Shown here: in pieces, positions 1,254 through 60,845 of the stretch | How positions within the stretch are numbered: position 1 is the stretch's first letter | Layout of the letters: every line of letters begins with the position of its first letter | From: a virus | Taxonomy: Duplodnaviria; Heunggongvirae; Uroviricota; Caudoviricetes | IMG/VR virus record: IMGVR_UViG_2740892441_000001 | Strand: one strand, 5' to 3' | DNA: 64,000 nucleotides | Notes under the pieces: model-generated | What the model was told of the DNA's origin: nothing | Database searches by the model: none | Seen by the model: the letters and a program-made list of their open reading frames with translations, nothing else | Program-made: the position numbers and the translations under genes

Positions 1254-1622
1254 TCACTCGTTCTCTTGAGTAGATGAGTCCCCATTCCCTCGGGGTTGAT
1301 CTTGCCCGCTTTCTTGGGCTGCGTCTTGATCATAAGTAAGTACTGACTTATTTTCAAGGGTATTTAGATCATTTTTTGGCGGAAAATTCAAGAGATCTTT
1401 ATCAAATTCCTTCTTCATCGCCTCAGTGATGTTCGGGAAAATCTTCTCAATCAGCATTTCCATCTGGTGACGACGTACAGAGTCCGGTGCCTGAAGTAAC
1501 GACAGTTTCTCGGCAACAGAAAATTCATCAGTAAGGCCACGAATATCGAAACTTTCTGGATACGCAATTAAAGAGTGGTCTTCGTCCAGATCTACCCCCA
1601 TCCATTTCGCAACCAGTAGCAT
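1254..1622 (-). CDS. Hypothetical acidic head-module protein
   Basis: 122 aa ORF; start overlaps end of upstream portal-like ORF; no recognisable motif. Confidence 0.35.
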   Translation of the reverse strand: MLLVAKWMGVDLDEDHSLIAYPESFDIRGLTDEFSVAEKLSLLQAPDSVRRHQMEMLIEKIFPNITEAMKKEFDKDLLNFPPKNDLNTLENKSVLTYDQDAAQESGQDQPRGNGDSSTQENE

Positions 1623-2827
1623 GATTTGGCGTTCAGCCTTTCCAGACGCTCTGCTTTTGTGACAAGCAAGCTATTTACACGCTGGAAGTCATACATTTTT
1701 GCGGCACCAGATGAGTTATCGATTCCCTGTGCGTTGTCCTGCTTCGTTCGCTCACCAGCTACACCAACTGAATGGTAGATTTCGTTAATCACCGTCTTAA
1801 TCGTAGTGATGATCATCTGAGCTTGTTTCGGGTCTGGTGACAGATAAAACGGCTGGTTTCCACCTTCAGAATCGTAGGTGAAGACTCGCTTTGTGCCCAT
1901 TTCAAGCACTTTAGTGTGGTTTTCATCACCAGGTAAAAGCGACTGTACCGGTATAGCCAACTGGCTAAATGTCTGATCCTGAATAATGGCATCAAGGTTT
2001 GACAGATAGTTTGCAACCGCACGATCAAGATAAGCGATATCATCGATCAACGATGGGCTGAAATACGGTGATTCACTTTCTCCAATACAATCAACAGGAA
2101 ACACAGGAACTACGCCGAGATTATGCTCACCGCTATCCTCTAAAATAACTTTTGCCTGACGGCGACCTGCTCCACCAGCGCCCTTCTTCACTTCCTCACG
2201 GAACAGATACCACTCGTTTTGTGTCCACAGACGATAACGTTGGTATTCCTGACCTGTAGAAGTAAAAGGATCTGCGTCATCACGAGCGACTTCCACAATT
2301 AACGCCCACAACATATTCCCGTCGTCGTCCCATGCCACATCCAGCATTTGCTGAGGTGAAATCCAGTAGGCGTAGGCGCGAGCATCTTTCTTTTTCTCGT
2401 CAGCTACTGACTCAACATCACCACTCATCGTGCTATCGACAACAACCCATATGCGACCGTAAATAGACGACTGCAAATCAATAGCGGCCATAAATGAGTC
2501 AATAGAGGCATTCTGGCGGGTCGCACGTTTCCAGAAATTGCGGATCTGCTCTGGTGCCTCTTCGATATTTCTATGAATGTCTTCTTTAAAGAGATATTTG
2601 TTGATGAGGTTTACCACCTCACGAGTGTGGTTGAAGCGATAAGCACGCTCAACTCGCTCCTTAAACTCCTGATCTCCCTCTTTAAAGTAACGAAAGATAT
2701 TGTCTGTAAACCAACCACGCCCGCCAGCGTAAGTGCTGGCGAGGAAGTCCCAATGTTCTTTTTTCTTTTCGTATTCCGGGTGGCGTCGCGCCACCAGATC
2801 CTTAATTTGTTTGTCGTTCAATTCCAT
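1592..2827 (-). CDS. Putative portal protein
   Basis: 411 aa ORF immediately downstream of large terminase on the same strand; RBS AAGG upstream; assignment by synteny. Confidence 0.5.
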   Translation of the reverse strand: MELNDKQIKDLVARRHPEYEKKKEHWDFLASTYAGGRGWFTDNIFRYFKEGDQEFKERVERAYRFNHTREVVNLINKYLFKEDIHRNIEEAPEQIRNFWKRATRQNASIDSFMAAIDLQSSIYGRIWVVVDSTMSGDVESVADEKKKDARAYAYWISPQQMLDVAWDDDGNMLWALIVEVARDDADPFTSTGQEYQRYRLWTQNEWYLFREEVKKGAGGAGRRQAKVILEDSGEHNLGVVPVFPVDCIGESESPYFSPSLIDDIAYLDRAVANYLSNLDAIIQDQTFSQLAIPVQSLLPGDENHTKVLEMGTKRVFTYDSEGGNQPFYLSPDPKQAQMIITTIKTVINEIYHSVGVAGERTKQDNAQGIDNSSGAAKMYDFQRVNSLLVTKAERLERLNAKSCYWLRNGWG

Positions 2828-10200: not shown

Positions 10201-10287
10201 TAACCGCATAAGTCTCCGGCTGAAAAAAGTTCTTGATTGGCTGAATGATATTTGTAGGCTTATCAATGTTTAGAGCCGGAGGTGTGA

Positions 10288-10830: not shown

Positions 10831-10857
10831 CCATCCATTAATCATAGCCAGACAAAT

Positions 10858-11277: not shown

Positions 11278-11806
11278 TGATATGACGACGAAAGACATCA
11301 CCTACGGTGTGCCAGCAGAAGTCTGGCCTCGAGATTACACTAACGTTGAAAAACTACTGATGTTCTGGCGCAGAGAACAAATTCCTGTAAGGGCCACTCT
11401 AGAAGATGGCCAGGCGTTTTGCATGTACGTTTATGGCCTCATGCCATCTCGTAACAAAGTTGACCTTTGCCCAGCCCCTTTTGACAAAGAAAATCGTATA
11501 AGGCTCCCACTTGAACGCATTAGTACAATTGAATCAGGTGTGGTTGACAGTATCGCTCACGATTTCAAAGGTCGATTAACAGTTCACCCTGATTATGTCG
11601 ATAATCGGCCATCACGCCGCGATTTTTTTGCTATTTGCAACCAAGCCTATAAAGCAAACAAATCTATAAGGGTGTACATGGCGGATGGCCGTGAAATTGA
11701 GGGGGTGTCAGCAGGCGCAGATGCTTGTCAGGTTACACTACGTGTCGAGAACGGTAGAAAAATAGTTATTTTGTTCGATTGGGTTGAACGAATTTTGCCT
11801 TTTTGA
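11243..11806 (+). CDS. Hypothetical protein
   Basis: 187 aa ORF; true start may be the internal Met at ~11281. Confidence 0.45.
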   Translation: MVQWIYCQPLYNDMTTKDITYGVPAEVWPRDYTNVEKLLMFWRREQIPVRATLEDGQAFCMYVYGLMPSRNKVDLCPAPFDKENRIRLPLERISTIESGVVDSIAHDFKGRLTVHPDYVDNRPSRRDFFAICNQAYKANKSIRVYMADGREIEGVSAGADACQVTLRVENGRKIVILFDWVERILPF

Positions 11807-11809
11807 GTT

Positions 11810-12118
11810 ATGAAATCGATATTGTTACCACCATTATTTTTACTTTGCTCAGTTGCAGCAAATGCAATGGACTATAAGCCTGTCATTCAGTCGCTGATGA
11901 ATGACGTGTGCTCAACGTCTCAGAATGTATCAGTTTGCATGTATCAATTTTCGGCAGCCGTAAAAGCAGGAAAAGCGATAGGTGAGAATGTGGAACTGTG
12001 TAAGAAAGTGGCAAATGAAGAACGAGCAATGTTGGATTGCGAATCTAGCGAGTCATCGGCACAGTTCGTTGATGCGCTATTTGACACCAATCGTAAGGCT
12101 GTAGAGTCTGTCCAATAA
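11810..12118 (+). CDS. Small secreted protein
   Basis: Signal peptide MKSILLPPLFLLCSVAANA; 102 aa. Confidence 0.55.
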   Translation: MKSILLPPLFLLCSVAANAMDYKPVIQSLMNDVCSTSQNVSVCMYQFSAAVKAGKAIGENVELCKKVANEERAMLDCESSESSAQFVDALFDTNRKAVESVQ

Positions 12119-22305: not shown

Positions 22306-22462
22306 AGTAGGCATTACTTCTTTGTAGTGAAAAGGGGCTTGATAGTAACAAAATGGCCTTATGTCTGCCATGTGATAACAGCATTTCTCATAAATGATTA
22401 AATGTCGTAGCTGGAGTACACTACAAGGCGACAATTGCGCAAATTAAAATAAAGGAGACGGG

Positions 22463-23563
22463 ATGAGCGAGTCCAAATCGCCGGATGCCCTGAGAGCAAT
22501 GGTAGCCGGTACGCTGGCTAATTTTCAGCACCCAACCCTGAAGCACAACCTGACTACGCTTAAAGCGTTACACCATGTTGCGTTGATGGATGACACACTG
22601 CATGTCGAACTAATCATGCCTTTCGTGTGGAATAAGCCTTTTGAAGACCTGAAAGAGCAATGTAGTGGTGATCTGCTCCGTATCACTGGCGCAAAGGCTA
22701 TCGACTGGAAGCTGTCGTACAACATTGCCACGCTTAAGCGCGTCAAAAACCAACCAGGCATTAATGGCGTTAAGAACATCATCGCCGTCAGCTCAGGCAA
22801 GGGCGGTGTAGGCAAATCGTCCACAGCAGTAAACTTGGCACTGGCGTTGGCTGCTGAAGGTGCGAAAGTTGGTATTTTGGATGCCGATATCTACGGTCCA
22901 TCAATTCCAACCATGCTGGGTGCGGAAAACCAACGTCCAACCTCACCGGACGGTACTCACATGGCACCTATCATGTCTCATGGCCTGGCAACCAACTCTA
23001 TTGGTTATCTGGTCACCGACGACAATGCAATGGTGTGGCGTGGACCGATGGCCAGCAAGGCGTTAATGCAGATGTTGCAGGAAACTCTATGGCCTGATCT
23101 GGACTATCTCGTTCTCGATATGCCGCCGGGCACTGGTGATATTCAATTGACGCTGGCGCAGAACATTCCTGTAACTGGTGCTGTTGTGGTAACTACGCCG
23201 CAAGATATCGCGCTGATCGATGCGAAGAAAGGCATTGTGATGTTCGAAAAAGTCGAAGTGCCGGTACTGGGTATCGTCGAAAACATGAGTGTGCATATTT
23301 GCAGTAACTGCGGTCATCACGAGCCAATTTTTGGCACCGGTGGCGCACAGAAGCTGGCCGAGAAATACAACACGCAGTTGTTAGGCCAAATGCCACTTCA
23401 TATCTCTCTTCGTGAAGATCTGGATAACGGAACACCAACCGTTATTAGTCGTCCAGATAGCGAATTTACGGCTATTTATCGTGACCTCGCAGATCGCGTT
23501 GCTGCCCAAATGTATTGGCAAGGTGAAGTAATACCTGGCGAAATCGCATTCCGCGCAGTGTGA
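22463..23563 (+). CDS. apbC: Iron-sulfur cluster carrier protein ApbC/Mrp (P-loop ATPase)
   Basis: 366 aa; deviant Walker A SGKGGVGKSS and CxxC motif (CSNCGH); divergent from metG with enterobacterial-type intergenic region. Confidence 0.95.
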   Translation: MSESKSPDALRAMVAGTLANFQHPTLKHNLTTLKALHHVALMDDTLHVELIMPFVWNKPFEDLKEQCSGDLLRITGAKAIDWKLSYNIATLKRVKNQPGINGVKNIIAVSSGKGGVGKSSTAVNLALALAAEGAKVGILDADIYGPSIPTMLGAENQRPTSPDGTHMAPIMSHGLATNSIGYLVTDDNAMVWRGPMASKALMQMLQETLWPDLDYLVLDMPPGTGDIQLTLAQNIPVTGAVVVTTPQDIALIDAKKGIVMFEKVEVPVLGIVENMSVHICSNCGHHEPIFGTGGAQKLAEKYNTQLLGQMPLHISLREDLDNGTPTVISRPDSEFTAIYRDLADRVAAQMYWQGEVIPGEIAFRAV

Positions 23564-23600: not shown

Positions 23601-23990
23601 CTACATCACAGGACAATCATCAAACTCGCCACTTCTTGCGTCGTTGATAATGTGAGTGATCACACCAAACACGGCATTGCTGCCCGTGCATCCATCATCA
23701 TCCTTTGGCAATGCTTCCTTCTTACCAGTTCTTAAATCCTCCAGATGCTGACGTGGATACTTCCGGTATCTTTTTACGCGATATTCCCCATCCAGAGCAC
23801 ATACAAGAAGAGATCCATCAACAGGAGTGAGTGAGGAATCGACCACCAGCAATGCACCCTGCAATATTCCCTCACGATGATGACTATCAGCCGCCCTCAT
23901 GAAGTAGGTCGCTGAAGGATGTCTAATTATCTGCTGATCAAGAGAAATACGGCTCTCTGCATAATCCGCCGCAGGAGATGGGAAGCCCAT
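23601..23990 (-). CDS. UmuD'-like S24 peptidase-fold protein (HumD-like, lacks UmuD N-terminal arm)
   Basis: 129 aa starting MGFPSPAADYAESR, matching E. coli UmuD from Gly25 onward; conserved Ser and Lys positions present; LexA box upstream. Confidence 0.85.
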   Translation of the reverse strand: MGFPSPAADYAESRISLDQQIIRHPSATYFMRAADSHHREGILQGALLVVDSSLTPVDGSLLVCALDGEYRVKRYRKYPRQHLEDLRTGKKEALPKDDDGCTGSNAVFGVITHIINDARSGEFDDCPVM

Positions 23991-24008
23991 AGCGTTTTCA
24001 CCTCAAAA

Positions 24009-24028
24009 TACTGTTTATATATACAGTA
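24009..24028. promoter_or_regulatory. LexA (SOS) box TACTGTTTATATATACAGTA
   Basis: Perfect CTGT-N8-ACAG palindrome 19-38 nt upstream of the UmuD'-like start, overlapping a TATACT -10-like hexamer. Confidence 0.8.
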
Positions 24029-24120
24029 TACATGAAAGAAACCCACTTAGTGCAACCGATCGAGACTCTTCACCAAACAAAAATATTTTTCTCAAATAAG
24101 AAAAGGCAGAAAACAAATTG

Positions 24121-24150
24121 TTTAAGGCCACTAGTTGTGGCCTTAATGGG
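24121..24150. terminator. Hairpin AAGGCCACTAGTTGTGGCCTT (terminator-like) after gene 24161-24685
   Basis: Stem-loop read directly; same family as 28300-28325. Confidence 0.4.
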
Positions 24151-24160
24151 GGAGGGGTGC

Positions 24161-24685
24161 TTATTGGCTATGGCTAAAAATCAAATGAGACACTTCATGT
24201 GGTTGTAGCTCGTCAAGATCCGGGGCCACAAAACCTTTTCCGAAAGACTTCACAAGTGATTCACCAGCCGCATCATTGTCACCTATTACGCGAAAGTCAT
24301 ACGGCAGCATTGCCAGTTGACGACGTAATCCTGCTGAGAAAGTCGAACCTAACAGCGCCCACGAATTTCCGCCCGCGTTGTGCACTGCTGCACTTTTAAA
24401 AATCGACTCAGTTATCCATATCGGTCCATCTTTTAAAGGAAGATAGGTTCCCCATAGTAGCTGTCTGCCGTGCGCTCGTGTGAAATACCGGGCCATCTTC
24501 GGATTGCTATGCTGCTTAGGAGCGCCTGGTCTGTATGTCTGATACCCGGCCAACATCCCATCAAACCTGTATAGAGGGAACGTAACAACTCCTTCGCTTT
24601 CATCGATCCACTGTCTATATGGATGCACATCATGGCGGTAGTTGCGAGTTAGCAAATGAGCTTCCAGCTTTCCAAATTTGGTCAT
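24161..24685 (-). CDS. TOPRIM-domain protein (primase-like fold)
   Basis: Start set at MTKFGKLEAH; segments ITESIFKSAAVHNAGGNSWALLG and VIGDNDAAGE resemble TOPRIM E...DxD motifs. Confidence 0.45.
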   Translation of the reverse strand: MTKFGKLEAHLLTRNYRHDVHPYRQWIDESEGVVTFPLYRFDGMLAGYQTYRPGAPKQHSNPKMARYFTRAHGRQLLWGTYLPLKDGPIWITESIFKSAAVHNAGGNSWALLGSTFSAGLRRQLAMLPYDFRVIGDNDAAGESLVKSFGKGFVAPDLDELQPHEVSHLIFSHSQ

Positions 24686-24698
24686 AACTTCGCATCCC

Positions 24699-25553
24699 TC
24701 ATAACACTTCCCATTTATCACCATATTTCTCCATAGCTCTTAGCCAGTAAACATGGCCACTAGGCATAGTGATGTGAGGCTCGCCAAACTCTTCTCCATG
24801 CACATCAAAGATGTCCCCAACAGAGAATTGGGGGATTTCTACGCCGTTTTCACCTATATGCGTAATTCGTATACGTTTCGGTTGAAATTGTCCACCTTTG
24901 AGCGAGTTGTTCACTGCTCTGGCAATTTTCTCCCGCAATTGCTGCGTTACGTGGTACTGAACCGCAATATCCCGCAACTCGTTCACCAGTTCTCTAATCT
25001 GGTGATCTTTAAGCTCATTATTTGGGTGATGGGCAACAACTCTGGTTAATTCACCCTTGTCTTTTGCTCTTACGTATGCAGCTCTTGTGCATTCGACCCA
25101 TGTATTACCGCCTACATTAACTTCGTAGATTAGGCTGGACTTATCTGTCAATTCGGAACAAATACGGGCCGTGGTCTGGCAACTAGAGCATTCGCAGTTA
25201 TCGCGGAAACCGTGGTCTACTGGCTGCGGTTTCACATCATCAACTTTTTCTACCCTATTGGAATTTAAATACTTCGAAGCCTTGCTATGCCAATCGCTGG
25301 TTTTAGGATCTTGTCCATCCATCAAACGCCAGGCTTCAGCGATTAACTCATAACTAGTGACTGTAGCTTCCTGCGCATCACCAATAAGTCGTGTAATCTC
25401 TCTTTCAAGCCGACCGCCTAGCTCTGTTTTAGTGCAATGTTCTGACCAATCGCCAGCCTCAAGCAGCGCGAGAATGCTTAAAATATCGTCCAATAGAACG
25501 GTAGTATTATCGACTTCCTTCTGAAACTCACCGGCTACTGATTTATGCATCAT
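24699..25553 (-). CDS. Hypothetical protein
   Basis: 284 aa ORF in operon with the TOPRIM gene; cysteine cluster CECSSC. Confidence 0.5.
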   Translation of the reverse strand: MMHKSVAGEFQKEVDNTTVLLDDILSILALLEAGDWSEHCTKTELGGRLEREITRLIGDAQEATVTSYELIAEAWRLMDGQDPKTSDWHSKASKYLNSNRVEKVDDVKPQPVDHGFRDNCECSSCQTTARICSELTDKSSLIYEVNVGGNTWVECTRAAYVRAKDKGELTRVVAHHPNNELKDHQIRELVNELRDIAVQYHVTQQLREKIARAVNNSLKGGQFQPKRIRITHIGENGVEIPQFSVGDIFDVHGEEFGEPHITMPSGHVYWLRAMEKYGDKWEVL

Positions 25554-25852
25554 TCGTCATCCTCATCCGAGTCATCCTCATCACAGGATGAGAGTAGTGG
25601 GTTAGTCATTCGCCCTACTTGAGTGGCGTAGCCACGCCGACAGAGATTGCGCAGCACACTGTATATTTCGAACATCTCGGTTCGTTCATCGCCAACATCA
25701 AGCTCAGATGCTATAGCGTGGCATTCAGTCGCGAGAGCCGATATTTTCTGAAATAACTCTGCTTTATTCACTCTTAGACTCCTGCGGAGGTTCTGGTAGC
25801 GGCATCCAGTGAGTTGCTTGCTCAATACCATTACCCGGCTTAATCGTTGCAT
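25550..25852 (-). CDS. Hypothetical protein with acidic C-terminal tail
   Basis: 100 aa ending CDEDDSDEDDE; start uncertain. Confidence 0.35.
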   Translation of the reverse strand: MQRLSRVMVLSKQLTGCRYQNLRRSLRVNKAELFQKISALATECHAIASELDVGDERTEMFEIYSVLRNLCRRGYATQVGRMTNPLLSSCDEDDSDEDDE

Positions 25853-26498
25853 CTCCGCGCCGAAAGGTGCTTCCGGTATAGCGTGCGGAGCATATTAGCG
25901 GTTCAACCAGAGAGCTATCGAAATTCACCGAAATAAGCACGTTCTGGCCCTTTTCAGGCATTCGCTCACTACAGCTTATCCAACCATCCGGAGTTACCGG
26001 ATTGTTGCCAGCCTCATACGCGACCCTTATCCAGTGCATAAGCATTTCAGTACTTACACATCCACAATCAACATCAATTTTGTCATGCTGCTGTTCCAGC
26101 CATTGCTCAAAAGTTAACTTGTAAGTTTGGCTTACAGGTTTGGCTTCCAGTTCTGCTATGTGATTTTTGGCTGATTCCAACTCAATCGACAATTTTTCCA
26201 ACTGCTCTTTATGATTTTTATATTCCTGATATGCGTGCCAAGACTGACCTTTGCGCACACTATCAGTGATATCAGCAACCTGCTCTGGTGTTAGCGTGGT
26301 CAGTGGCTGTGCTGGAAAAATCATCACTTGCCCGGCATCCCAATCAAAACCCGCCTGAATTGACTGAACCTCAACTGATGGTGTTGAACCGATGCGACCA
26401 GGCGAATGAACAACGATCGTTACATCCATATCGCGACGATGGCTGTGGTTGTTGGACAAAATACGATTCACCGACTCAGAAAATTTGGAAAATTTCAT
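25764..26498 (-). CDS. Hypothetical phage protein (DUF551-like C-terminus)
   Basis: Start set at MKFSKF; C-terminal WMPLPEPP segment typical of a common phage domain of unknown function. Confidence 0.5.
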
Positions 26499-26821
26499 GC
26501 TGACCCCTCTTTCTCTCCCCGGATAATTCTGTTGCACACATCCACACACTCGTCGCAGATGAAAACGGCGTCCCCAGCAATTAACTTTTTGACGGCGTAC
26601 TGGGATTTGTTGCAGAAGCTGCAACAAAGTGTTCGCCTGGCTGATAAGGATGGAGCGCCAGATGTCAGCCGCTCCATATCGTTCTTGCGACGCAATATCA
26701 CACGGCTGAACTCAACCAGTTTCTCCGGGGATATCTCCTCCTCCTCCGTAGCGAGCGTCTCTAGTCGTTCGAGTATGTGGAAGGCTTTTTCCTGGGTAAT
26801 TGCAGAATGCGATGTGGTCAT
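26495..26821 (-). CDS. Small protein with ClpX-type C4 zinc finger
   Basis: C-terminal [31 protein letters not shown] closely matches the ClpX N-terminal zinc-binding domain. Confidence 0.55.
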
Positions 26822-26822
26822 C

Positions 26823-27434
26823 TCACTCTCCTTTGATGCGAATGCCAGGGGCGCGTGGCACATTAACTTCCACGATGCGCACTGTTGGTTTGTACATCTC
26901 AATCGCTGTCAGCCAGTCAGCTCCTGTCATGCGCTTTTCCGCATCGCCATTAGTCCACTGAACCGGTACACCAATAGCCTTCATCGCGATTTCTATTTCC
27001 CCGGCAATGGCGCTTTTTCCGCAACCAGTAAAACCAGATACAACGACCAGAACTTCACCTTTGGCTGGTTTTATTTCCCGTGCTTCCAGTTCTGCAATGC
27101 GCTTACTTCCATCCGAGATAACGCCCTCGTAATACTCACGCTGCTCGTTGAGTTTTGATTTTGCCAACTCCAGTTGTTTTGTTAGTTCTGCAATACGACA
27201 AACATCGTTGATACGCGTTTCCTCTAATGCGTTGCTCTCATCCAGTAGCGCCAGCACGGTTTCTGGTCCGGCCAGAAATTTGAAGGCGTTGAGGGCATCA
27301 ATATCAACACCGCTATCTTTAAGTTCCTGTTCGCTTATCAGATCATCATCAACTGGCAACATTAACAGGCGTTCCATTGCCGGAATTGCACGCTCTGCCG
27401 CCTCACGCAGTGCCTGATAGTCAATCTTGCTCAC
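26823..27434 (-). CDS. Hypothetical protein (Ead/Ea22-like coiled-coil protein)
   Basis: 203 aa; coiled-coil N-terminus, resembles lambdoid ea22-type early proteins by composition. Confidence 0.45.
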
Positions 27435-27874
27435 TGGATGACTCCTTTACGAAGCAGTTCAGCAATACTTACGCATATCTCTGCGCCTCTAATCAGCCCC
27501 GGAACGTTCTTGTTTGGCCCAACTTCACCATCAACAAAATCAATCATCGCGTTACGAGCCATATCCACGCCCTGCGCACGTACTTCAGCCAGAAAAGCAT
27601 CGGTAGCTGGAGTTTCGCTGTGGTGCAGGGCATCGTTGATAATCATTGCAGCAACTCCGGCCTGCCCTGCATCCGTGACCGACACATGCTCAAGAGTTAC
27701 GGCCATTGCGTGTTTCAGCCCAGCGTTCTCTGCCACCAGCGCAGCGAGATTAGTCTCAAGCTCTGAAATTCGGCACGTGGCATCAATATTTGTGTCCTCC
27801 AGCCGCTTAATTTCATCCAGTAGTGCCAGCACATCCTGCGGATGCTCTTCGACCTCTTCAAATTCTTCTTCCAT
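27431..27874 (-). CDS. Hypothetical protein (Ead/Ea22-like)
   Basis: 147 aa acidic coiled-coil N-terminus; start overlaps upstream stop. Confidence 0.45.
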   Translation of the reverse strand: MEEEFEEVEEHPQDVLALLDEIKRLEDTNIDATCRISELETNLAALVAENAGLKHAMAVTLEHVSVTDAGQAGVAAMIINDALHHSETPATDAFLAEVRAQGVDMARNAMIDFVDGEVGPNKNVPGLIRGAEICVSIAELLRKGVIQ

Positions 27875-27908
27875 ATATCACCTCAAATAAGTGGTTTGCT
27901 GCCTGAGC

Positions 27909-28238
27909 TTATTTTGCTTTGAGCAACTTCATCGCTTCGTCAATGCGTGATTGTGTCCCTGCGTTTGGCTCCACTACCTGAAGGCGGCGGGCATCTTCAA
28001 GAAGTTTCGCAATCATTTCTTTAAGTACTTCGTTATCGTTATTCATGAGCGTGCTCCTGTCAGTTAGCTTTGAGTAACGCGCCGCGATTTGCATCTCCAC
28101 GGTTCCGTCATGCAATGCAACAATCTCTCGGACAGCAACCGGGTGGTTGATGTAGTCTTCGCCGGTATATTTTCTTTTCTGACCAACGCCACCATGAGCG
28201 CCAGCGGCGAACATATGAGCTTCGGAAATACTAGACAT
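27909..28238 (-). CDS. HD-domain protein resembling the RelA/SpoT (p)ppGpp-hydrolase N-terminal region
   Basis: AHMFAAGAHGGVGQKRKYTGEDYINHPVAV...ALHDG matches the SpoT/Mesh1 hydrolase motif including the HD dyad; only 109 aa so possibly truncated. Confidence 0.5.
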   Translation of the reverse strand: MSSISEAHMFAAGAHGGVGQKRKYTGEDYINHPVAVREIVALHDGTVEMQIAARYSKLTDRSTLMNNDNEVLKEMIAKLLEDARRLQVVEPNAGTQSRIDEAMKLLKAK

Positions 28239-37803: not shown

Positions 37804-38352
37804 TTACACAATTTCAGAGGGTAATTTAAAAAATCCGTACTTATTACGTGCCTTAAAGAAGCATTGCATCATTAAGTTTGTGTCATATAAGGCACTATGT
37901 GCTTTGGCATGATCGTATATAAAGCCAAGAGAGAAGGCCAACTCTTCAAGGCGGGGACGTTTACCGTCTTCTGTGGCCCACAGGGAAAATAGAGTGTCAA
38001 TCAATGGGATGTCTGGAAGCGAAAAACCGTAACTTTTCAGCTCATGCCTAATAAACGGAATATCGAACGCTTCGCCGTTGTGGGCTATCCAAATATCGGA
38101 AGAAGAGAGATACGAAGCGACAGATGAAGCGTGATCGGCTAGTAACGGCTCGGCGGCTAAATCTTCAAGACTGATGCCGTGTACCGCTTGCGCTTTCGGA
38201 TCGATACTGCGACGCGGGTTGAACCGCATTGCAAAACTATCAACCATTGTCTGTGTCTCAATTTCGTACTTCACCATTGCGATTTCAATGATTTTATGGC
38301 CTGAGAGGAAATCAAGACCTGTTGATTCGATGTCCACCCCTGTAGCAATCAC
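37804..38352 (-). CDS. DnaQ-like (DEDD) 3'-5' exonuclease
   Basis: Exo I VDIESTGL, Exo II IAHNGEAFDIPF, Exo III HSALYDT motifs. Confidence 0.8.
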   Translation of the reverse strand: MIATGVDIESTGLDFLSGHKIIEIAMVKYEIETQTMVDSFAMRFNPRRSIDPKAQAVHGISLEDLAAEPLLADHASSVASYLSSSDIWIAHNGEAFDIPFIRHELKSYGFSLPDIPLIDTLFSLWATEDGKRPRLEELAFSLGFIYDHAKAHSALYDTNLMMQCFFKARNKYGFFKLPSEIV

Positions 38353-39143
38353 TTTTTATCTCCTTTTACTGGTCGTTTGGACGGTGTGAAGATGGCAGCT
38401 TCAACATCCCACCCCCTCAAAATTCGCTGCGAGATAATGGTCGCAGTCAAGCCAACCTCTCTAGCCCATTCGGTAATTCGCTGAGTTCTGCCGCGACACT
38501 CGATCAGACGCTTACTATCTCGGTTGGCATACGTGTCGACGCTGGCGTTAAGCGCGCGATCTAATGGCCACCCTTTCTTGATTCGATAGTGAAGAGTTGA
38601 TGTCTGAATCCCGGCTCTTTTAGCCCATTGTGAGAGAGTCAGCTTTTCCCCCTTATGCTCCAAAATTAAGTTTGAACGCGTGTTATTGGCCTGTTCTTCA
38701 AAAGTCGCCCATCTGCAATTTTCAGGTTCGTAGTCACCATTCACATCTTTGCGATCAAGAGACATCCCCTCTGGTCGCTCTCCCATGTCAGCATAAAAGT
38801 TTTCAAATATTTGCCACCGCTCGCAGACTTTGATACCTCGGCCGCCATACCACTTATAGGCGTGATGGGTTGGTTTTTCACATCGTTCCCGCATACCCAG
38901 CCATATACGATAAATTGGCGTTTTACTCATACCATGAGGCTTTACGCTACGGCGATGTGCGTTGTAGACACAGCCACACGATATTGTCGCCCCGTGATTT
39001 AGCTTCCCGTAACTAACCAGGCAGGTGTTGCCGCAATCGCAGATGCAATCCCAAAGTCGCCCTTGTTTGTTTGAAATACCGGAATATTTAAGTGCAACCA
39101 ACTTTCCAAAACGTTTACCTGTTATGTCTACCGGTTGTCCCAT
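38349..39143 (-). CDS. HNH/AP2-type homing-endonuclease-like protein
   Basis: Cys cluster CICDCGN...CGC plus IYRIWLGMRERC...YGGRGIKVCERW...F.NFYADMG typical of phage free-standing HNH endonucleases. Confidence 0.65.
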   Translation of the reverse strand: MGQPVDITGKRFGKLVALKYSGISNKQGRLWDCICDCGNTCLVSYGKLNHGATISCGCVYNAHRRSVKPHGMSKTPIYRIWLGMRERCEKPTHHAYKWYGGRGIKVCERWQIFENFYADMGERPEGMSLDRKDVNGDYEPENCRWATFEEQANNTRSNLILEHKGEKLTLSQWAKRAGIQTSTLHYRIKKGWPLDRALNASVDTYANRDSKRLIECRGRTQRITEWAREVGLTATIISQRILRGWDVEAAIFTPSKRPVKGDKK

Positions 39144-39152
39144 TACTACTCC

Positions 39153-39632: not shown

Positions 39633-40277
39633 CTAATGAACGGTCACTCGGCCACAGAACCGGTTTTCTATCTTTTCTACAGCGTTATCTAGCATTCTCA
39701 TCACTGATCTGGCTCTTGCTTCAACCGTGCGATATCGGTTGGAAACGACGAAGGTTTGCAGATCCCCCCTTTGCGGATGCAGGTGAATTTTTGTCAGTTC
39801 CCCGCACATCAACGCATCAATACGAGCGACATACAGACGGTCTAATGATGCTCGTTGTGATCGCAAGTAATCTCGCTCTGAGAGAGCGACTCCCGGGCGT
39901 AAGCCAGCAATGGCGTTAAAGTTTGAAATAGCAGTTTTGTGGCAAAACTTTTCGATATCGAGGGCTAACTCAATACATCGATCTTCATTGGTATGGCCGA
40001 CCAAATCCAACGTGTAGGCCATAACATCAGCAGGTGTGCGATCGATAACAAAGCCTTCAACACCACGCGTAAGTAGCTCTATATGCTTTGCTATTTCCAT
40101 TTGAATCTGAAGCCGCTCATATAGAGGCATAGACTCACCTACTCGAACACCGAGTCGGCTCATCAAACTTCCGACACCAGCATCCACGTAAGGGATTCCG
40201 TAATGTTTGTCGATATATTTTGCCAGGGTTGTTTTCCCACTGCCCTGAGCACCAGTGATCCCAATCCGGTAATCCAT
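39633..40277 (-). CDS. P-loop NTPase, probable (deoxy)nucleotide kinase
   Basis: Walker A GITGAQGSGKTT at N-terminus; small size and position within the nucleotide-metabolism cluster. Confidence 0.55.
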   Translation of the reverse strand: MDYRIGITGAQGSGKTTLAKYIDKHYGIPYVDAGVGSLMSRLGVRVGESMPLYERLQIQMEIAKHIELLTRGVEGFVIDRTPADVMAYTLDLVGHTNEDRCIELALDIEKFCHKTAISNFNAIAGLRPGVALSERDYLRSQRASLDRLYVARIDALMCGELTKIHLHPQRGDLQTFVVSNRYRTVEARARSVMRMLDNAVEKIENRFCGRVTVH

Positions 40278-40752
40278 TACGACCTTCTGTATACGATCTG
40301 CGAAAAGCCAGGCTCTTCCTCGCTGGCTCGTTGGGTATAAGCTGTTTCAACAGGCACAAAGCCTAAGTTACGCATCATGCTTGCCGGGAAGAATGCATCG
40401 GCGTTTGGTACATCAACGCCGATGTGGGAGAGCCAAATCTCTTCAACATGCGGCATGAATAGCGAGTAAATTTGTTCCCCGCCAATCACCCACACAGGCT
40501 CTGGTAATCGCAACACATCATCCACACCAGCAGGTAGAATCCATTTGGTACAAAGCCATGAGAGCGCGTCAAAACGAGGTTATGACGCTCTGGAAGAGGG
40601 CGTTTGAGACTTTCCATCGTTTTACGCCCCATAACGACAGTGGCGTTTTTGGTGAGTCTCTTAAATAGCTTCAGATCGGTAGAACAACGCCAGGGGAGTT
40701 CATTCGCTATGCCGATCTCATAGTTACGGCCAACAGCAGCGATCATCTTCAT
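40277..40752 (-). pseudogene. Dihydrofolate reductase, interrupted by a frameshift (or sequencing error)
   Basis: N-terminal [25 protein letters not shown]...[11 protein letters not shown] and C-terminal ORF ...[10 protein letters not shown]... are DHFR halves in different frames; junction ~40525-40565. Confidence 0.75.
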
Positions 40753-43384: not shown

Positions 43385-44527
43385 TTACAGGTCTGCAAAC
43401 TGGCTTAGAGAAGCCTTGTCCACGGTAGAATCGATCTGACCTACCAGATATGTGCTTTGCTCTGCCTCTTGTGGTGCAATTTGCAGTGTGTCGGTTAACA
43501 ACCACTTGTTCATCCAGACCAGCGGATCTGTGGTAACTTCTGGAAATAAAGCCTTCAGGCCAAGACGATTCATAGCCAGATTGGTGCGGTATTTTACATA
43601 GGTCTTCAGAATATCCGCGTTTAAACCAATCATCGAACCGTCTTTGAAGAGATAGTCTGCCCAGTTCATTTCTTGTTCGGCGACTGATTTCATGGTGTCG
43701 TAAATGACGTTTTCTTCATCAGCAGCAATCTCTTTCCACAATAAACCTTCGCGACCGGTACGCATGAAGCGGATCATGCGTTCAGTTCCTTCGCAATGCA
43801 GAGCTTCATCACGGGCAATAAAGCGCATAATTTTGGTGTTACCCTCAAGCAACTTCCGTTCGCCAAAGGCAAACGTACATGCAAAACTTACATAGAAACG
43901 GATCGCCTCAAGCGCATTAATGGACACCAACGTGCGGAAAAGCTGACGGTGCAAAGGGTATGGCTCCCAGCCATATTCATTTACGTACAGACGTTCAAAC
44001 TCTTTCTCACCTAACGACTGGCGCTCGCAGGTCATCCCATAAAGCCTGTCATATTCAGCAGAGATACTGATCGCTCGGTTGATGATTTCTTCATCCGTAA
44101 CAATACCGTCAAAAACAATACTCGGATCGTCCACCATGCCACGAATAATGTGGGTGTAGCTGCGGCTATGGATAGTCTCAGAGAAAGACCACGTTTCAAC
44201 CCACGTTTCCAGTTCAGGAATAGAGATAAGCGGCAGCAGAGTTGCGTTTGGGCTACGTCCCTGAACTGAATCGAGCAACGTTTGATAACGGAGATTACTC
44301 AGGAAAATGTGGCGTTCGTGGTCCCGCAGCTTCGTATTGAAGTCGATGCGATCGCTCGAAATATCAACTTCTTCCGGCCGCCAGAAGAAAGACAATTGAC
44401 GTTCAATCAACTTTTCAAAATCACGGTATTTTTGTTGATCGTAACGAGCCACGTTGACAGATTGTCCGAGGAACATAGGCTCTTTGGTTGCATCATTAGC
44501 ACCCAAACGGAACGTTGAATATGACAT
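43385..44527 (-). CDS. nrdB: Ribonucleotide reductase class Ia beta subunit
   Basis: 380 aa closely paralleling E. coli NrdB ([43 protein letters not shown]). Confidence 0.95.
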
Positions 44528-44627: not shown

Positions 44628-46942
44628 TCAGATTTTGCAGGCTCCGTCGCACTCATCTTCTGGCTCGACGGCTACAGCTTGCGTAAGTGGATTCTGCGCT
44701 TCGTCGTCATCACGCTTTCCTGCACCATCTCTGGTGTTGTGGTAGTAAAGCGTTTTAACTCCCATCTTGTAGGCGAGAAGCAAATCTGACAGTAGCGTCA
44801 TCATTGGGACTTTATCGCCTTCAAAGCGAGAAGGGTCATAGTTGGTATTGGCTGAAATAGCCTGGTCAAAGAACTTCTGGATGATCGCCACCTTTGTCAG
44901 ATAGCCGCGGTTGTCCGGCATATCCCACAGGTATTCATACTGTTCCTTCAGTTTTTCAAACTCAGGCACGACCATCTTGACGATGCCGTCCTTAGAAGAT
45001 TTCACTGACACCGGGCCACGAGGCGGTTCGATGCCGTTGGTGGAATTAGTGATCTGGCTGGAAGTCTCGCATGGCATTTGTGCCGTCAGTGTGGAGTTGC
45101 GAAGGCCGTATTTTGCAATACGTTCACGCAGTTCTTCCCACGGCATCTTTAACTCAAAGTTGGTTTCGCCGCTTTCGTCTAATGAAGAACGGTAATGGTC
45201 GATCGGCAACTGACCAATTGCGTATTTGGTCTGCTCAAACCAGTCACACTCACCTTTTGCTTCAGCAAGTCGGCAGCTGGCGTCAAGAAGGTAATACTGG
45301 ATAGCTTCGAACGTTTCATGCACCAGTTTATTGCCAGCGGTATCAGAATAACGAACGCCATTCTTTGCCAGGTAATAAGCAAAGTTGGTTACACCAATTC
45401 CCAGGCTACGACGAGCTTTGGCAGGCACTTCGGCTGCCTCCATCGGATAGTCTTGATAATCCAGTAACGAATCCAGTGCAGCAACGGCATAGAACGCCAC
45501 CTCTTTAAGAGACTCCAGTGAACGGATGGCTCCGAGGTTAAAAGCGGATAAAGTGCATAGCGCGATCTCACCGTTCGGGTCGTCGGTAAATGCCAGTGGA
45601 CGGGTGGGTAGAGTGATCTCCATGCACAGGTTTGACTGGCGAACAGGTGCAAGAGCAGGAATGAAAGCGCCATGCTCGTTAATATGATCGACGTTCGCAA
45701 TATAAATTCGGCCCGTGGACGCTCGTTCCTGCATCAGAGATGAGAACAGCTCAATGGCAGGTACTGACTTCTTGCGAATTGAATCATCGGCTTCGTATTT
45801 ATGGTACAGCTTTTCAAACAGATCCTGGTCTGTGAAGAAGGCTTCGTACATATCAGGCACATCATGCGGCTGAACAGAGTGATGTTCTCGCTTCTGACGA
45901 GTCGACGGTACATTAGACGGTTACTCATGACGCCGTAATCAAGATGGCGAACGCGGTTTTCATCAATACCACGGTTATTTTTCACCACCAGCAGACTTTC
46001 AACCTCAAGATGCCAAATCGGGTAAAACGCTGTTGCTGCGCCACCACGAACACCACCTTGCGAACAAGATTTAACAGCCGTCTGGAAATGCTTCAGGAAT
46101 GGAATAACTCCGGTATGGGTGGCTTCACCATTGCGGATCTCACTGCCCAGCGCACGGATACGGCCAAAACCAATACCAATTCCAGCACGACGTGAAACGT
46201 AGTCGATAATTGCGGCTGAAGCTGCACTAATCCCTTTCAGACTATCGCCAGACTCAATCAGCACACAACTGGAGAACTGACGGGTTGGAGTACGGACGCC
46301 GGCCATGATTGGTGTGGGCAGAGACAGCTTGAACGTACTTGTAACGTCATAGAAACCTTTGACCATCTCCATACGTGTTTTGCCCGCGCAGTCGTCTTCC
46401 CAATTCTGGAACAGACACATGCCCACCAGCATATAGATATGTTGCGGGCCTTCGTGAATCTCACCAGTAACACGGTTTTGAACGAGGTATTTGCTTTGCA
46501 ACTGCACCGTAGCTGCATAGCCAAAAAGATCGTCACGTTTCGGCTTAATGTAATTGCCGAGTTCTTCGATCTCTTCAAATGAATAATGTGTCAGCAAATC
46601 CTTGTCATAAACGCCCTTGTTAACGTTCTTGACAATGTGTTGGTAGAAGTTCGGATAGTCGTAACGACCGAAGGCATCTTTGCGGATTTTAAAAATGTTC
46701 AGGCGGGCAGCCACCTGCGAGTAATTTGGTGCATCTGGTGAGATCAAATCAGCGGCAGATTTAACCAAAGCCTCATGCAACTGGCTGGTGGTAATCCCAT
46801 CAAAAATGCTGGTCGCAGCTCCCATTGCTACAGCGGATGCGCTTACACCACGAATGCCTTCTACGCCATACATTACGACGCGGTTGTATTTTTCTTCGGA
46901 TAACGGCTCTGTTTGGCCGTTACGTTTTACGATGCTTATCAT
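44628..46942 (-). pseudogene. nrdA: Ribonucleotide reductase class Ia alpha subunit, split by a frameshift near 45860-45900
   Basis: N-terminal ORF 45734-46942 and C-terminal ORF 44628-45860 (ending ...ECDGACKI) together are about the length of E. coli NrdA but in different frames. Confidence 0.88.
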
Positions 46943-47594: not shown

Positions 47595-48337
47595 TTACCA
47601 TGTTCCCCATAGAGGGTTTTCCAATAATCTCGCCTCCAACGAATTGGCTACTATTGCCGTTTGCAACGTTGGTTGGGGATAGTTTGCAAAGTCTGAATAC
47701 TCATTTTCCTGCGTGACACGTTTATCTACGGCATGTTTAACGCCACTTGCTATGAAATGACGCATGATACCCAACAGCCTCCGACTGTCTGCACTATCGT
47801 TTGCTAAAACATGAGGGAGCTGAAGTTCGATTTCTACCATTTCTCCATACTTACCAACAAACTGTAGTTTGTCCGCACTGTACTTTTTATCCCTCCTTTG
47901 GATAAGGAAACCAGTAAAAGCATCACCTGGCGATGCCAAACTATCCACCCGCTTATTGGCAAGTCGAATAAGGTTCGTGAAAGCCATACAGTGATGCGCC
48001 CCCATTCCCCCAAAGAATCCTTCGCTATTAATGTTAAGATCTTCAGTTTCATGGGATGCAATAAACCCAGGCCCGACGTTGGGAGATATCCCCCCTCAAC
48101 AAAAGGATTAATCAGGATCGGCGCAATACATCCAGGTGGTAGTGATTTCAAACTTTGCATCAATGGTGTCTCGGATATTAGACCAAGCAACGCGGCGAAT
48201 TGTACTCCGTCAATATTGTTGCTGCCCCACAGAATACGTGGAGCCGCACCATTGGAAGTATGCCCATTGATCAGTTTTATCGACTGCATCACTGCAAATA
48301 CCTGCAAAAACTGCGAGCGGCTTAATTTAAACGACAT
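47595..48337 (-). CDS. Hypothetical protein, apparently split into two overlapping frames (47834-48337 and 47595-48005)
   Basis: Two ORFs overlap by ~170 nt in different frames between recombination genes. Confidence 0.35.
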
Positions 48338-53539: not shown

Positions 53540-54220
53540 TGCATTTGCCTGTTTTACTTATCCCAGTTATCCACTGGATAGATCCAAATAAGAGATCCCA
53601 AGTAAGATCAAATAGAAGATCCAAAGAGATCCCCGATCGCCTCTAGCCGTTGCGGTTACTGGTCTGAAAGGGTGTTGCCATCCACTATGGAGAGCAAAGA
53701 AACCTCTGTAGAGAGCTGAATAACCGCTATGAAGAGTAAAACAACCACTCTGGAGAGCTGTATATATCCACTGTAGAGAGTAGAGCACATTGTCTTTTAT
53801 GGATAACTTAATGACTTAATTCTTCATTAACATACTGATATACATAGATATATTTTAAACTCTACTCTTAGTCATGATTCTTATGTCCTTAAATATCCAC
53901 AGAAGAGTAGAGTTACCTGTTCTTGAAATCCTCTGATTTTTATCCACAGGCCCGATCCAGTAATTCAGATCACAAAGAGAACCAAAGAGACCCATAAAGA
54001 CCCAATAAGATCCCCGCCCACCTCAAACCGTTGTGCCATCTGCCTTCAGACATGATCGATATCCACTATAGAGAGCGAATAATCCACTATAGGGAGCAAA
54101 GCAACCACTATAGAGAGGAGAAAAACCACTATAGACGGTAGGATAACCGCTGTGATGAGTGCTACTATCCACTGTAATCAGCAAAGGCCACCAAAGCCGT
54201 CGAATAACAAGAGACATTTG
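53540..54220. promoter_or_regulatory. Plasmid-type replication origin region: two arrays of 22 bp-spaced iterons, DnaA boxes, GATC clusters and an AT-rich segment
   Basis: Iterons (A/T)TCCACTATAGAGAGC-like at ~53681-53780 (5 copies) and 54061-54182 (6 copies); perfect DnaA box TTATCCACA at 53940-53948 plus near-matches at 53566-53574 and 53893-53901; 6 GATC in 53570-53640, 4 in 53960-54060. Confidence 0.75.
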
Positions 54221-54222
54221 GA

Positions 54223-55278
54223 ATGAGCGAAAACGGCAATAAAAACATAGCGATCGTTGAAGCATTTTCAGAAACAGATAAAAAGACAGGCGAAGTTGTT
54301 ACGTTGGTTCCTAACACTAATAACACTGTTCAGCCTGTTGCTTTGATGCGTCTGGGCCTCTTCGTTCCGACGCTGAAATCGACATCCAGAGGAAGAAAGG
54401 GGCAAATGGTCTCTATGGATGCCTCTGCTGAACTCAAACAGCTGTCTCTGGCAAAAGCCGAAGGGTACGAAGACATAAGGATCTCTGGCCTTCGGCTTGA
54501 TATGGATAACGACTTTAAAACGTGGGTGGGAATAATCCACGCGTTTGCCAAACACAAGGTCGTTGGCGATACTGTCACGTTGCCGTTCGTTGAGTTTGTA
54601 AGGCTGTGTGGCATTCCGACCGCCAGGTCATCAGCGAAGTTACGCAAACGCCTGGACAGTTCGCTAAGCCGTATTGCCACAAATACCATCTCGTTCCGTA
54701 GCAAAGGCTCTGATGAGTTTTACGTAACGCATCTTGTGCAAACGGCAAAATATAGTGTCAAGCACGATACGGTCGAACTGAAAGCAGATCCCAAGATTTT
54801 CGAACTCTACCAGTTCGACAAAAAGGTTCTTCTGCAACTCCGGGCTATAAACGAACTCTCAAGAAAAGAATCCGCTCAGGCGCTTTATACTTTTATTGAA
54901 AGTTTGCCGCCTGATCCGGCACCAATATCACTAGCCCGTTTACGCGCCAGACTTAATCTGACAAGTCGCACTATTACTCAGAATGCGACGGTAAGAAAGG
55001 CTATGGAACAGCTGCGAGAGATAGGATATCTCGATTACACGGAAGTTAAGCGCGGAAACTCGGTCTACTTCGTCATCCACTATAGGCGGCCAAAGTTACG
55101 CCAGGCACAAATATCAACAAAAATCGATAATGATGAGACGGAATATAGCCTCCCAGATGAGAATCAAGATGACATTATCGACGTTGTGCCTGACGAAAAA
55201 GAAGGCAAAATGGTCATGTTGAGTAAAGAAGAACTGGCGCTTCTCGAAGAGTTGCGCAAGGCAAAGACTCGCAAATAG
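54223..55278 (+). CDS. Putative iteron-binding replication initiator (RepA-like)
   Basis: 351 aa gene flanked upstream and downstream by iteron arrays; assignment rests on context, not a recognised sequence match. Confidence 0.65.
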
Positions 55279-55282
55279 CCCA

Positions 55283-55762
55283 ACCACTGTAGTTAGTAGT
55301 AAGGCTCACTATCCACTGTAGTGAGCCTTACTTATATCTGTAATTCGCTATCCACTATAGTGAGTATCGTTATCTGTTGATAACCACTGTAGGCAGTAGA
55401 ATGCAAATACTGAATCAAATGTTAGTGATCACTAACACTGATGAAACAAGGGCTGCGAGGTTAGTGGTCACTGGGTATCTTGGAAAATTTACTGTCTATA
55501 GTGGTTGTTGTCGCCCTCATCTTTGAGCGTATCCACTGTGGCGAGTGGATATCCACTGAAAACAGCAAAGGCTTACTCACCATAGTGGATACCCGCTGGA
55601 CATCTCACTCCAATACTCACCATAGTGGTTGTTTGATGCGAATGAAAGGCTGTCTACTCGCTACAGTGGTTAGCAGATATGTAGGAAGAGAGGACTGCAG
55701 ACCACAGTGGATAATGAGCTGATACGAATGCGGTGAGCTGGCTACTCACCGCAGTGGTTGGT
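55283..55762. repeat. Downstream iteron array in both orientations (incA-like control locus)
   Basis: ACCACTGTAG, ATCCACTGTAGTGAGC, ATCCACTATAGTGAGT, then inverted copies (CACCATAGTGGAT, CTACAGTGGTT, CACCGCAGTGGTT). Confidence 0.7.
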
Positions 55763-55766
55763 GCTA

Positions 55767-55979
55767 TTAGTGTATTTTCTTCAACAGGCCCCAAAGTGTT
55801 CCGGCTTTTGTAGTCAGTTTTCCTGTTTCTGGATCGTACATACGCCATTCACGCCGCTGGTGGACGATATACCCATCTTCACGTTCCAGACGCTCAAGAA
55901 TGCCAGGCTGCTTGAAACCCTTAGCACGCCAGTATCCGCTTGTTTTCTCGATTTCCAGACCTGCCAGTGTTAATGCCAT
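55767..55979 (-). CDS. Hypothetical small protein
   Basis: 70 aa ORF overlapping the next gene's stop. Confidence 0.4.
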   Translation of the reverse strand: MALTLAGLEIEKTSGYWRAKGFKQPGILERLEREDGYIVHQRREWRMYDPETGKLTTKAGTLWGLLKKIH

Positions 55980-58505: not shown

Positions 58506-60845
58506 TTAATCTTCTAGTTCTTCTGTTGGTGATGTCTTCTCTCGTCGGTCATCTATCGCCTGTAACGCAGCAATGATTTCAGCCAGTGGCTTCTCCCGAT
58601 ACATCTCGACGATCTGCGATTTGGTGTATTTCTTGTCACCAATTTCAACTCTCCCGCTGGCGTTCTTTGGCAGGTATCCTTCTTCCAGCATGTACTCGAC
58701 GAGCGATTCGATAACGTCGAGGCCACGAGTAGGATCGAAGTAGAATTTCCAGGTGCATTTGCCATACGGTGGTGCAACTTTGTTTTTGATGCACTCTGCG
58801 CCTACGTCCTGACCGATCTTCTCTTTCCCATCCTTCATCACCGATGCACCGAGACGGATGCGCACAGAAGCGTAAAACTTCGGTGAATCGCCGCCTGGAG
58901 ACGTAGTAGGGTCGCCAAACATTACACCGATTTTTGTGCGAACCTGATTCAAGAAGATGATGCAGGCGTTGTATTTGCGTGCCCACAAAGCCAGAGTAGG
59001 GAAGTTCGCACTCGTCGCACGCGCCAGTGCCGTATTGTCGTTCATGTTTAGCTGATCTTTGTCTTTGGCTGTGCCTTCAGCCATCTTTTCGAACTTCTCG
59101 GCTTTGGAGTTCGGAACCATAGACGCAAGAGAGTCAGCCACGATACAGATAGGTGCTGATTCGGGGATAAGCTCTTCATCACGAACCAATTTAAGTATTG
59201 TGCCGATCAACTCTACAGAGTCTTCGAAGGTATCTGGCTGCTTGTATACCCACTGACCGTCATCCTCATCTGCATTCAAACCATTGGCTACAGCCAGGCC
59301 AACGTCAAAACTGTTTTCATGATCGAGGAATACCGCCAGACCATCTTGTTTTTGAGCGGAGATCATCGCTGCTGTTGCAAGGAATGTGTTGTGGCTGATA
59401 ATCCCGTTAGACCAGAAAGAGTGTGTTTCCGGCATCGCTACGTCGAACGTTGGTGCTTCACCTTCCTCAATAGCCACGACTTCGTCGTAGAACAAGTTAG
59501 AGCCAATTACCGCTGCCAGTTGTGCAAACAGATGCTCGTTAAAACGATTCTTTCTGCCAATGAAGGAGACATAGATTTCTCGCAGTTTGTCTATTCCGAC
59601 ACGATCGCCGCGGCCAATAACGTGGTCTACCAGAGCGTAGTCTTCACGGGTGGTCTTGGTGAGCGACTCGTAGAGTGATTTCACTAAGCCGCTGATGTGC
59701 GGAACATAGCCTGAGTAAGTGCGGTCAAAACCAATGTCCCGTTTGGTTGCCACTGATAAACGTGCCGGAGATTCGAAACCAATCGTTGACAGAAAAAGGT
59801 CGTAATTAGAGCCACTGAATGACAGCCGGTAATATGTATTTTCATAACCCGCGACGTGTTTTTCAGAGATAGTTGACGTAATCCCCAGATTCAGGAGCAT
59901 GAGGCGAATTTGCTGTAGCAGCAGCCCACTCGCGCTCACAACCTCAATGCAGCGACCATCATTGACGTGGCATTCCAGCTCAAAGTAGCCGCGAAGGAAT
60001 GCAATTTGAGCCTCGCTATTGGCGCGACGCACACTCAACGGAACCTGCTTGCCAGCAGCTTTCTCATACTCCAGACCATATTCTTTAAAAAGCAGCGAAC
60101 GCACCTCTTTGCTAAACAGCACATGGTCTTCCGAGCCGTTATGTTTTCTCGTAACTGGCATCTTGTCTGATACCAGCGAAATGAGGCGGTAGTACTCATC
60201 CTTGATGAAAGGATCTGTGTTAGAAAAATTCACTGAATTTTCAGAGGCCACGTATCCGTCAGCAATTAAATAGCCCATCAGTTTTGCGATATTGGCATCC
60301 AGGTGCTGATCGCCGAATTGATGTGTGCCAACCATTGAAGGAATCGTGTCGCCTACACTGATTTTTTCAGCATGTCGCCAGACGACATTACCTAAGTCGT
60401 CAACCACACGGATTGGGTGACGGAACGTAGCCTCGATATAACCGCCTGATGCCAGCTTAATACGCTTGAATTTGCGACGGTTGTTCCATGTCAGGTGTGA
60501 GGTCTTCTCTATCACGCCATTTTCATTGATGAGTCCAACGTTATGCTCTACATCGCGAGTAGTGCATGTCGCTTTGTACCCTTCAATCTCAAACAACTCT
60601 TTCACTGTTACCATTCCACGCTCCGTCAGCAGCATGGTGTCTGCGGTAACACATTTCCCCGCACTTGGAGGACCGAATACTTCGACGATACGACCACATG
60701 GGAAACCGCCATCGTAACGACCGGAAATCGCTTTGTTTAACGGAGGAAAGCCTGTGTCAATCCAATGAGTTACTTTCTGAATTTCGTCGTTGCTACCGAT
60801 TTTCTTTTTCAGAGCAAGTGCCAGTGCGGATTTTCCTTTTGCCAT
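58506..60845 (-). CDS. RecA/UvsX-like recombinase containing an intein in the Walker A P-loop
   Basis: 779 aa; extein reads FGPPSAGK | C...(422 aa)...SHN | TFLATAAM; removing residues 65-486 leaves ~357 aa, RecA-sized. Confidence 0.88.
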   Translation of the reverse strand: MAKGKSALALALKKKIGSNDEIQKVTHWIDTGFPPLNKAISGRYDGGFPCGRIVEVFGPPSAGKCVTADTMLLTERGMVTVKELFEIEGYKATCTTRDVEHNVGLINENGVIEKTSHLTWNNRRKFKRIKLASGGYIEATFRHPIRVVDDLGNVVWRHAEKISVGDTIPSMVGTHQFGDQHLDANIAKLMGYLIADGYVASENSVNFSNTDPFIKDEYYRLISLVSDKMPVTRKHNGSEDHVLFSKEVRSLLFKEYGLEYEKAAGKQVPLSVRRANSEAQIAFLRGYFELECHVNDGRCIEVVSASGLLLQQIRLMLLNLGITSTISEKHVAGYENTYYRLSFSGSNYDLFLSTIGFESPARLSVATKRDIGFDRTYSGYVPHISGLVKSLYESLTKTTREDYALVDHVIGRGDRVGIDKLREIYVSFIGRKNRFNEHLFAQLAAVIGSNLFYDEVVAIEEGEAPTFDVAMPETHSFWSNGIISHNTFLATAAMISAQKQDGLAVFLDHENSFDVGLAVANGLNADEDDGQWVYKQPDTFEDSVELIGTILKLVRDEELIPESAPICIVADSLASMVPNSKAEKFEKMAEGTAKDKDQLNMNDNTALARATSANFPTLALWARKYNACIIFLNQVRTKIGVMFGDPTTSPGGDSPKFYASVRIRLGASVMKDGKEKIGQDVGAECIKNKVAPPYGKCTWKFYFDPTRGLDVIESLVEYMLEEGYLPKNASGRVEIGDKKYTKSQIVEMYREKPLAEIIAALQAIDDRREKTSPTEELED
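59388..60653 (-). mobile_element. Intein (422 aa) with LAGLIDADG homing-endonuclease domain inside the recombinase gene
   Basis: N-terminal Cys after GPPSAGK, C-terminal His-Asn followed by Thr; LAGLIDADG-type motifs LMGYLIADGYV and IAFLRGYFELE. Confidence 0.8.

Follow-up and report, generated by a model that had tools for sequence, protein, structure and literature searches.

The 64,000-nucleotide stretch of viral DNA analysed here, referred to below as the window, is, judging from its gene order and nucleotide identity, part of an Escherichia phage-plasmid of the SSU5-like group (PMC7969092). The genes around its ribonucleotide reductase (RNR) locus are arranged in the order SbcC-like, hypothetical, RuvC-like, nrdA, nrdB, MazG-like, thyA and dihydrofolate reductase (DHFR), the same order as in SSU5, Cyrano/pLF82, CMS-2020a and the E. 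marmotae YF8 plasmid. Identity in the nrdA region reaches 98-98.4% with phages Cyrano and CMS-2020a and 99.6% with E. marmotae plasmids, and throughout these Escherichia SSU5-like members (98-99.6% identity to the window) nrdA is uninterrupted and 2316 nt long.

In the window, nrdA occupies positions 46942..44628 on the minus strand and measures 2315 nt, compared to 2316 nt in the relatives. The gene is present as the two overlapping minus-strand ORFs that the earlier note had described, an upstream ORF at 45734..46942 (402 aa) and a downstream ORF at 44628..45860 (410 aa, counted from its first start codon). The downstream frame is already open at 45920, and both frames are open between 45920 and 45736, over 184 nt. 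The junction had been put at about 45860-45900, which is correct; the earlier note had proposed aligning both halves to NrdA, and with the repaired protein aligned to E. coli R1 the frame change fell after Ser358, at approximately R1 S357/P358, and alignment with relatives fixed the lesion at 45868..45869, where the plus strand reads GG and all intact relatives read GGG. On the coding strand this corresponds to CC instead of CCC within the Ser-Pro codons AGC CCG, so that TTC AGC CCG CAT becomes TTCAGCCGCAT in the window. This C lost from CCC was the sole indel found within nrdA, both in the alignment with six relatives and later in that with about 30. The same look at relatives revealed an uninterrupted 2316-nt nrdA in all of the approximately 30 close relatives aligned and in SSU5/Klebsiella relatives. 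A single continuous reading frame is thus not found in the window, the frame being broken at 45868-45869, and the open frame is reduced by the deletion from 772 to 430 codons.

Putting one C back generated a 771-aa protein that aligned end to end with E. coli R1 (residues 4-771 against R1 residues 7-761; 1059 bits). The 5' part in the true frame (45869..46942, minus strand; Met1 to Ser358) contains the ATP-cone, the all-alpha domain, the first ~135 barrel positions and the equivalent of Cys225, and the 3' part in the true frame (44628..45868, minus strand; Pro359 to the stop codon) contains the remaining barrel, the N437/C439/E441 loop, C462, Y730/Y731 and the C-terminal Cys pair, all of them conserved. 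Pfam domains PF03477, PF00317 and PF02867 were detected on the two pieces. The first carries the ATP-cone and all-alpha domains as well as barrel positions 1-135, the second matches barrel positions 128-523, and between them the pieces span positions 1-523 of the barrel. Comparison of the repaired protein with 2R1R showed that E. coli residues C225, N437, C439, E441, C462, Y730, Y731, C754 and C759 are all kept, and the conserved motifs FSSCVLIE, SNLCMEI, IALCTLS, LYYHNTR and CDGACKI are present. The repaired NrdA therefore has the same domains and catalytic residues as the E. coli class Ia NrdA/R1 (PDB 2R1R, 1RLR), whereas the frame as assembled breaks after Ser358; because this break falls inside the barrel, neither piece alone could be active. 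The adjacent nrdB partner (43385..44527, minus strand) is intact, as had been claimed, encoding a complete PF00268 protein of 380 aa with 9 synonymous and 1 nonsynonymous differences from that of plasmid YF8. The nrdA of the window is most likely an unremarkable gene of the functional type for a class Ia RNR alpha subunit, in an nrdAB operon that is well known from phage-plasmids.

The rest of the window was compared with the closest finished plasmid, that of E. marmotae YF8 (99.5% identity in nrdA), and at least eight one-base deletions in conserved coding sequences were found over the 64 kb, at positions 1637, 33770, 39399, 40533, 45868, 48081, 52851 and 62028, with no clean one-base insertion found in conserved coding sequences in the same comparison. 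The portal gene (1254..2827, minus strand) carries the deletion at 1637 (plus strand GTTCAG[C]CC), which shortens its open frame from 530 to 417 codons and is of the same type and in the same 9-mer context as the nrdA lesion. The DHFR gene (40277..40752, minus strand) is reduced from 161 to 100 codons by the loss of a G at 40533 (GCA[G]GG), and the gene for a 247-aa hypothetical protein (47595..48337, minus strand), located two genes upstream of nrdA, past the RuvC-like gene, is reduced from 264 to 184 codons by the deletion at 48081 (GTT[G]GGG). The remaining deletions affect the 5'-3' exonuclease gene (62028), a 62-aa ORF (33770), a 139-aa ORF (39399) and a 214-aa ORF (52851), and in addition a 2-nt deletion was found at 35091, at the 5' end of rnhA.

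A census of about 42 kb of coding sequence against YF8 yielded 687 synonymous, 250 nonsynonymous and 0 nonsense substitutions, together with 9 frameshifting indels in genes of at least 94% identity. Within nrdA itself the 10 differences from YF8 are all synonymous (0 nonsynonymous, 0 nonsense), and private substitutions in nrdA were found neither in the window nor in L016, the corresponding locus of the second carrier described below. Across the 12.4 kb of a core alignment comprising 24 sequences, four coding deletions are private to the window, and the other sequences have 0-2 indels each, which by position lie outside the large genes.

Most of the deletions occur in the context AGCC(C)/(G)GGCT, the exceptions being those at 40533 and 48081. 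When sites were oriented so that the lost base was a C, five of the seven C-run deletions were preceded by AG, compared to a background of 9.8% among 4868 runs (P = 1.6e-4, for an AGCC motif recognised post hoc). The 9-mer GTTCAGCCC has two copies in the intact reference, one in nrdA and the other in the portal gene, and both have lost a C in the window. The affected runs are short (2-4), consist of G or C only and show deletions only, with longer runs untouched. Two recognised motifs were considered as explanations of the context, namely the phosphorothioate motif (GAAC/GTTC) and the Dcm motif (CCWGG), and both were discarded, as each fits only a minority of the sites.

A 70-nt query spanning the nrdA junction detected no deletion allele among the matches listed from 172 plasmid and 200 complete E. 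coli records, all of which span 71 nt with a gap; strictly, this absence holds for alleles with identical flanks, since a deletion plus one SNP scores the same 98.6% as the intact sequence. The nrdA deletion allele was also sought by exact pattern in genome_contigs and metagenome_contigs, with no matches, and the portal deletion allele was absent from 179 plasmid records. A metagenome contig matching the portal allele 20-mer (L091) proved to be unrelated DNA and was set aside as a chance match.

The nrdA deletion was found in one other sequence, the IMG/VR contig UViG_2617271087_000005 (loci L007/L016), and a 19-mer scan of viral contigs returned this contig again and no other. It differs from the window by 76 mismatches over 8.3 kb and by 22 in nrdA, and so is not the record from which the window came. 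In the nrdA tree the two carriers do not group together: each forms its own tip and has an intact sequence as its nearer neighbour, the window lying 10 differences from YF8 and L016 lying 4 differences from L075. Because each carrier is nearer to an intact relative, the deletion is homoplastic, and a single origin was ruled out.

The portal deletion is likewise present in UViG_2617271087_000005 (L092) and also in UViG_2740892439_000007 (L093), in portal backgrounds with 99.7% and 98.3% identity, respectively, to the YF8 portal gene. These two contigs have in common a further deletion, GAAG[G]CTGAC, that the window does not have. L016 carries a private deletion, GTAG[C]CATG, unique among 28 loci, and L093 carries two, TAGC[C]TCC and CGGC[C]TTG. 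Sets of deletions that overlap without being identical, share one sequence context and lack phylogenetic coherence are what a systematic base-calling or consensus error produces, and these IMG/VR draft contigs probably contain false pseudogenes. The lesions lie at positions 648 and 2729 of L092, at 222, 2853, 5656 and 7738 of L093, and at 18675 of L016. A T-run difference at 14576 of L016 was rejected as an error signature, as it lies in a naturally variable intergenic tract.

Programmed frameshifting was one of the three causes offered in the earlier note for the split. Full-length NrdA would in that case be produced by programmed -1 ribosomal frameshifting or by transcriptional slippage, and a -1 shift right after AGC (45871-45869) would in fact restore the exact wild-type Ser-Pro-His-Asp. 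However, the overlap at 45920-45736 contains neither an X_XXY_YYZ heptamer nor a homopolymer longer than four (the longest being AAAA), and the RNA downstream is less stable than shuffled controls (MFE -12.3 kcal/mol; shuffle mean -16.0; z = +1.28). A single ORF is found in all aligned relatives except one draft contig, and with every intact relative encoding NrdA in one ORF, no recoding signal is conserved. Moreover, nrdA has the hot motif on its coding strand and the portal gene has it on the template strand, and this opposite orientation with respect to the coding strand points to a cause at the level of DNA and not of mRNA, leaving recoding with virtually no chance of being the explanation. 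We consider it extremely improbable, too, that the gene specifies an RNR in pieces, in which two polypeptides are made separately and then assemble, as with NrdA-a/NrdA-b of Aeromonas phage Aeh1, to our knowledge the only functional split class Ia NrdA. The Aeh1 enzyme provides the precedent for an active split class Ia NrdA: its nrdA is split between C439 and C462 by the homing-endonuclease gene mobE, and the two pieces are translated independently and have acquired tails that are essential for activity (PMC3045599). The window gene resembles nrdA-a/nrdA-b in being a class Ia nrdA present as two ORFs with the active-site residues partitioned between them, and its catalytic residues are all intact across the two pieces. 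In contrast to Aeh1, it has no mobE insertion or other inserted element, one base being the only difference from intact genes, and its break is located at E. coli S357/P358 and not between C439 and C462. Neither GTG 45860 nor ATG 45851 is preceded by a Shine-Dalgarno sequence, and the second piece has no plausible independent start. The last 44 residues of the first piece are out of frame, a tail that shows no sign of selection. Independent translation signals and activity-essential tails of the Aeh1 type are both missing; the arrangement is conserved in no relative.

As the same context-specific loss of one base breaks several other conserved genes, the nrdA lesion is probably a sequencing error, which among the causes offered earlier is the one strongly favoured, programmed frameshifting being unsupported and recent inactivation possible although less likely. 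Taken with the recurrence independent of phylogeny and the lack of any evolutionary decay in the nrdA 'pseudogene', the abundance of same-type lesions elsewhere in the assembly and their context bias make it very probable that the split is a sequencing or consensus (base-calling) artefact and not a property of the DNA, and that the cause of the missing base is most likely technical. In short G/C runs the assembly would have called one base too few, with a preference for AGCC(C)/(G)GGCT and at a rate of about one event per 7 kb, and nrdA would be one of at least eight genes affected by this systematic under-calling. We know of no documented case of a platform-specific GGCT deletion bias. The window resembles error-prone assemblies, for instance long-read-only ones, in its many single-base indels in short homopolymers that break genes showing no decay, and differs from them in that the runs are of 2-4 nt, of G/C only, with deletions only and in a marked AGCC/GGCT context. 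False pseudogenes caused by indel errors, and tools for their correction, have been described (PMC12007338, PMC9262707). Were the one-base deletion genuine, nrdA and the other affected genes would truly be pseudogenes, of very recent date, in a phage-plasmid undergoing decay, and the deletions might originate at a true mutational hot spot, TCAGCC(C)/GGCT, and for that reason recur across lineages. Consistent with such an origin, the two assemblies with the allele differ at 22 nrdA sites (~1%), so that it could be real and either recurrent or recombined; an RNR is also supplied by the host, which makes nrdA dispensable in the plasmid state, and the finished relative pRM9131-1 has an nrdA truncated by an IS91-family element. 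Nevertheless, we regard a genuine deletion as unlikely: nrdA shows 0 nonsense and 0 private substitutions and only synonymous differences, in three assemblies the essential portal gene is struck at the same 9-mer, none of the approximately 370 finished records screened showed the allele, the lesions are confined to deletions in short G/C runs and spare longer ones, and the allele occurs in just those assemblies that have other lesions of this kind. It is very unlikely that the recurrent loss of one base at TCAGCC(C)/(G)GGCTGA sites, seen across several independent assemblies, reflects a real property of the DNA, be it a modification that derails base calling or a slippage hot spot; for the former, an enzyme encoded by the element might modify bases in a sequence-specific manner, and for the latter, the DnaE-type replicase of the element might slip, repeatedly knocking out nrdA and the portal gene.

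The value of the artefact reading is mainly one of quality control. The window would be unfit for inferring pseudogenisation, recoding or a defective prophage, and nrdA, the portal gene, the DHFR gene, the 5'-3' exonuclease gene and the others would need a one-base correction before annotation. The AGCC/GGCT signature, and especially GTTCAGCCC, could be used to flag the artefact in other drafts of SSU5-like phage-plasmids, those in IMG/VR included. If, on the other hand, the deletions were true, the element would be a phage-plasmid in decay that is not inducible and has a peculiar hot spot, a picture for which the deletions themselves are the sole support.

Other variation was observed in and around nrdA within this plasmid family. 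In pRM9131-1 (NZ_CP028430.1; L094, positions 1-2679), nrdA is truncated at its 5' end beside a transposase of the IS91 family, and the annotation lists it as a pseudogene without the N-terminus. This is a genuine loss of nrdA in the Escherichia SSU5-like plasmid family, comparable to the window in that nrdA is inactivated, but caused by a structural lesion in a finished record and not by a single-base change. In CP059946.1 (L095), a T inserted in a TTTT run at nt 778 puts nrdA out of frame, and only 87 proteins are annotated in 110 kb; this record, too, is probably an error-prone assembly, with errors of another kind. The A-rich spacer between nrdA and nrdB, at about 44543, differs by 5-6 nt between sub-lineages (AAAAAAG(A/C)AAAAGG versus AAAAAAGG), also between the window and Cyrano-type relatives, which represents natural variation, as the short form is common to the closest intact plasmids.

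Elsewhere in the window, positions 20272-23563 contain host-like metG (methionyl-tRNA synthetase) and apbC/mrp genes that are ~94-96% identical to the copies in the YF8 plasmid, the differences being mostly synonymous (108 synonymous and 7 nonsynonymous in metG); the YF8 plasmid additionally carries der, cspG and dnaE. ARAGORN detected no tRNA genes in the whole window. Nucleotide similarity to YF8 is absent or weak at 10100-12100, 23800-28000, 37980-39150, 53700-55770 and 59400-60650, stretches that probably represent variable cargo or mosaic parts of the element.
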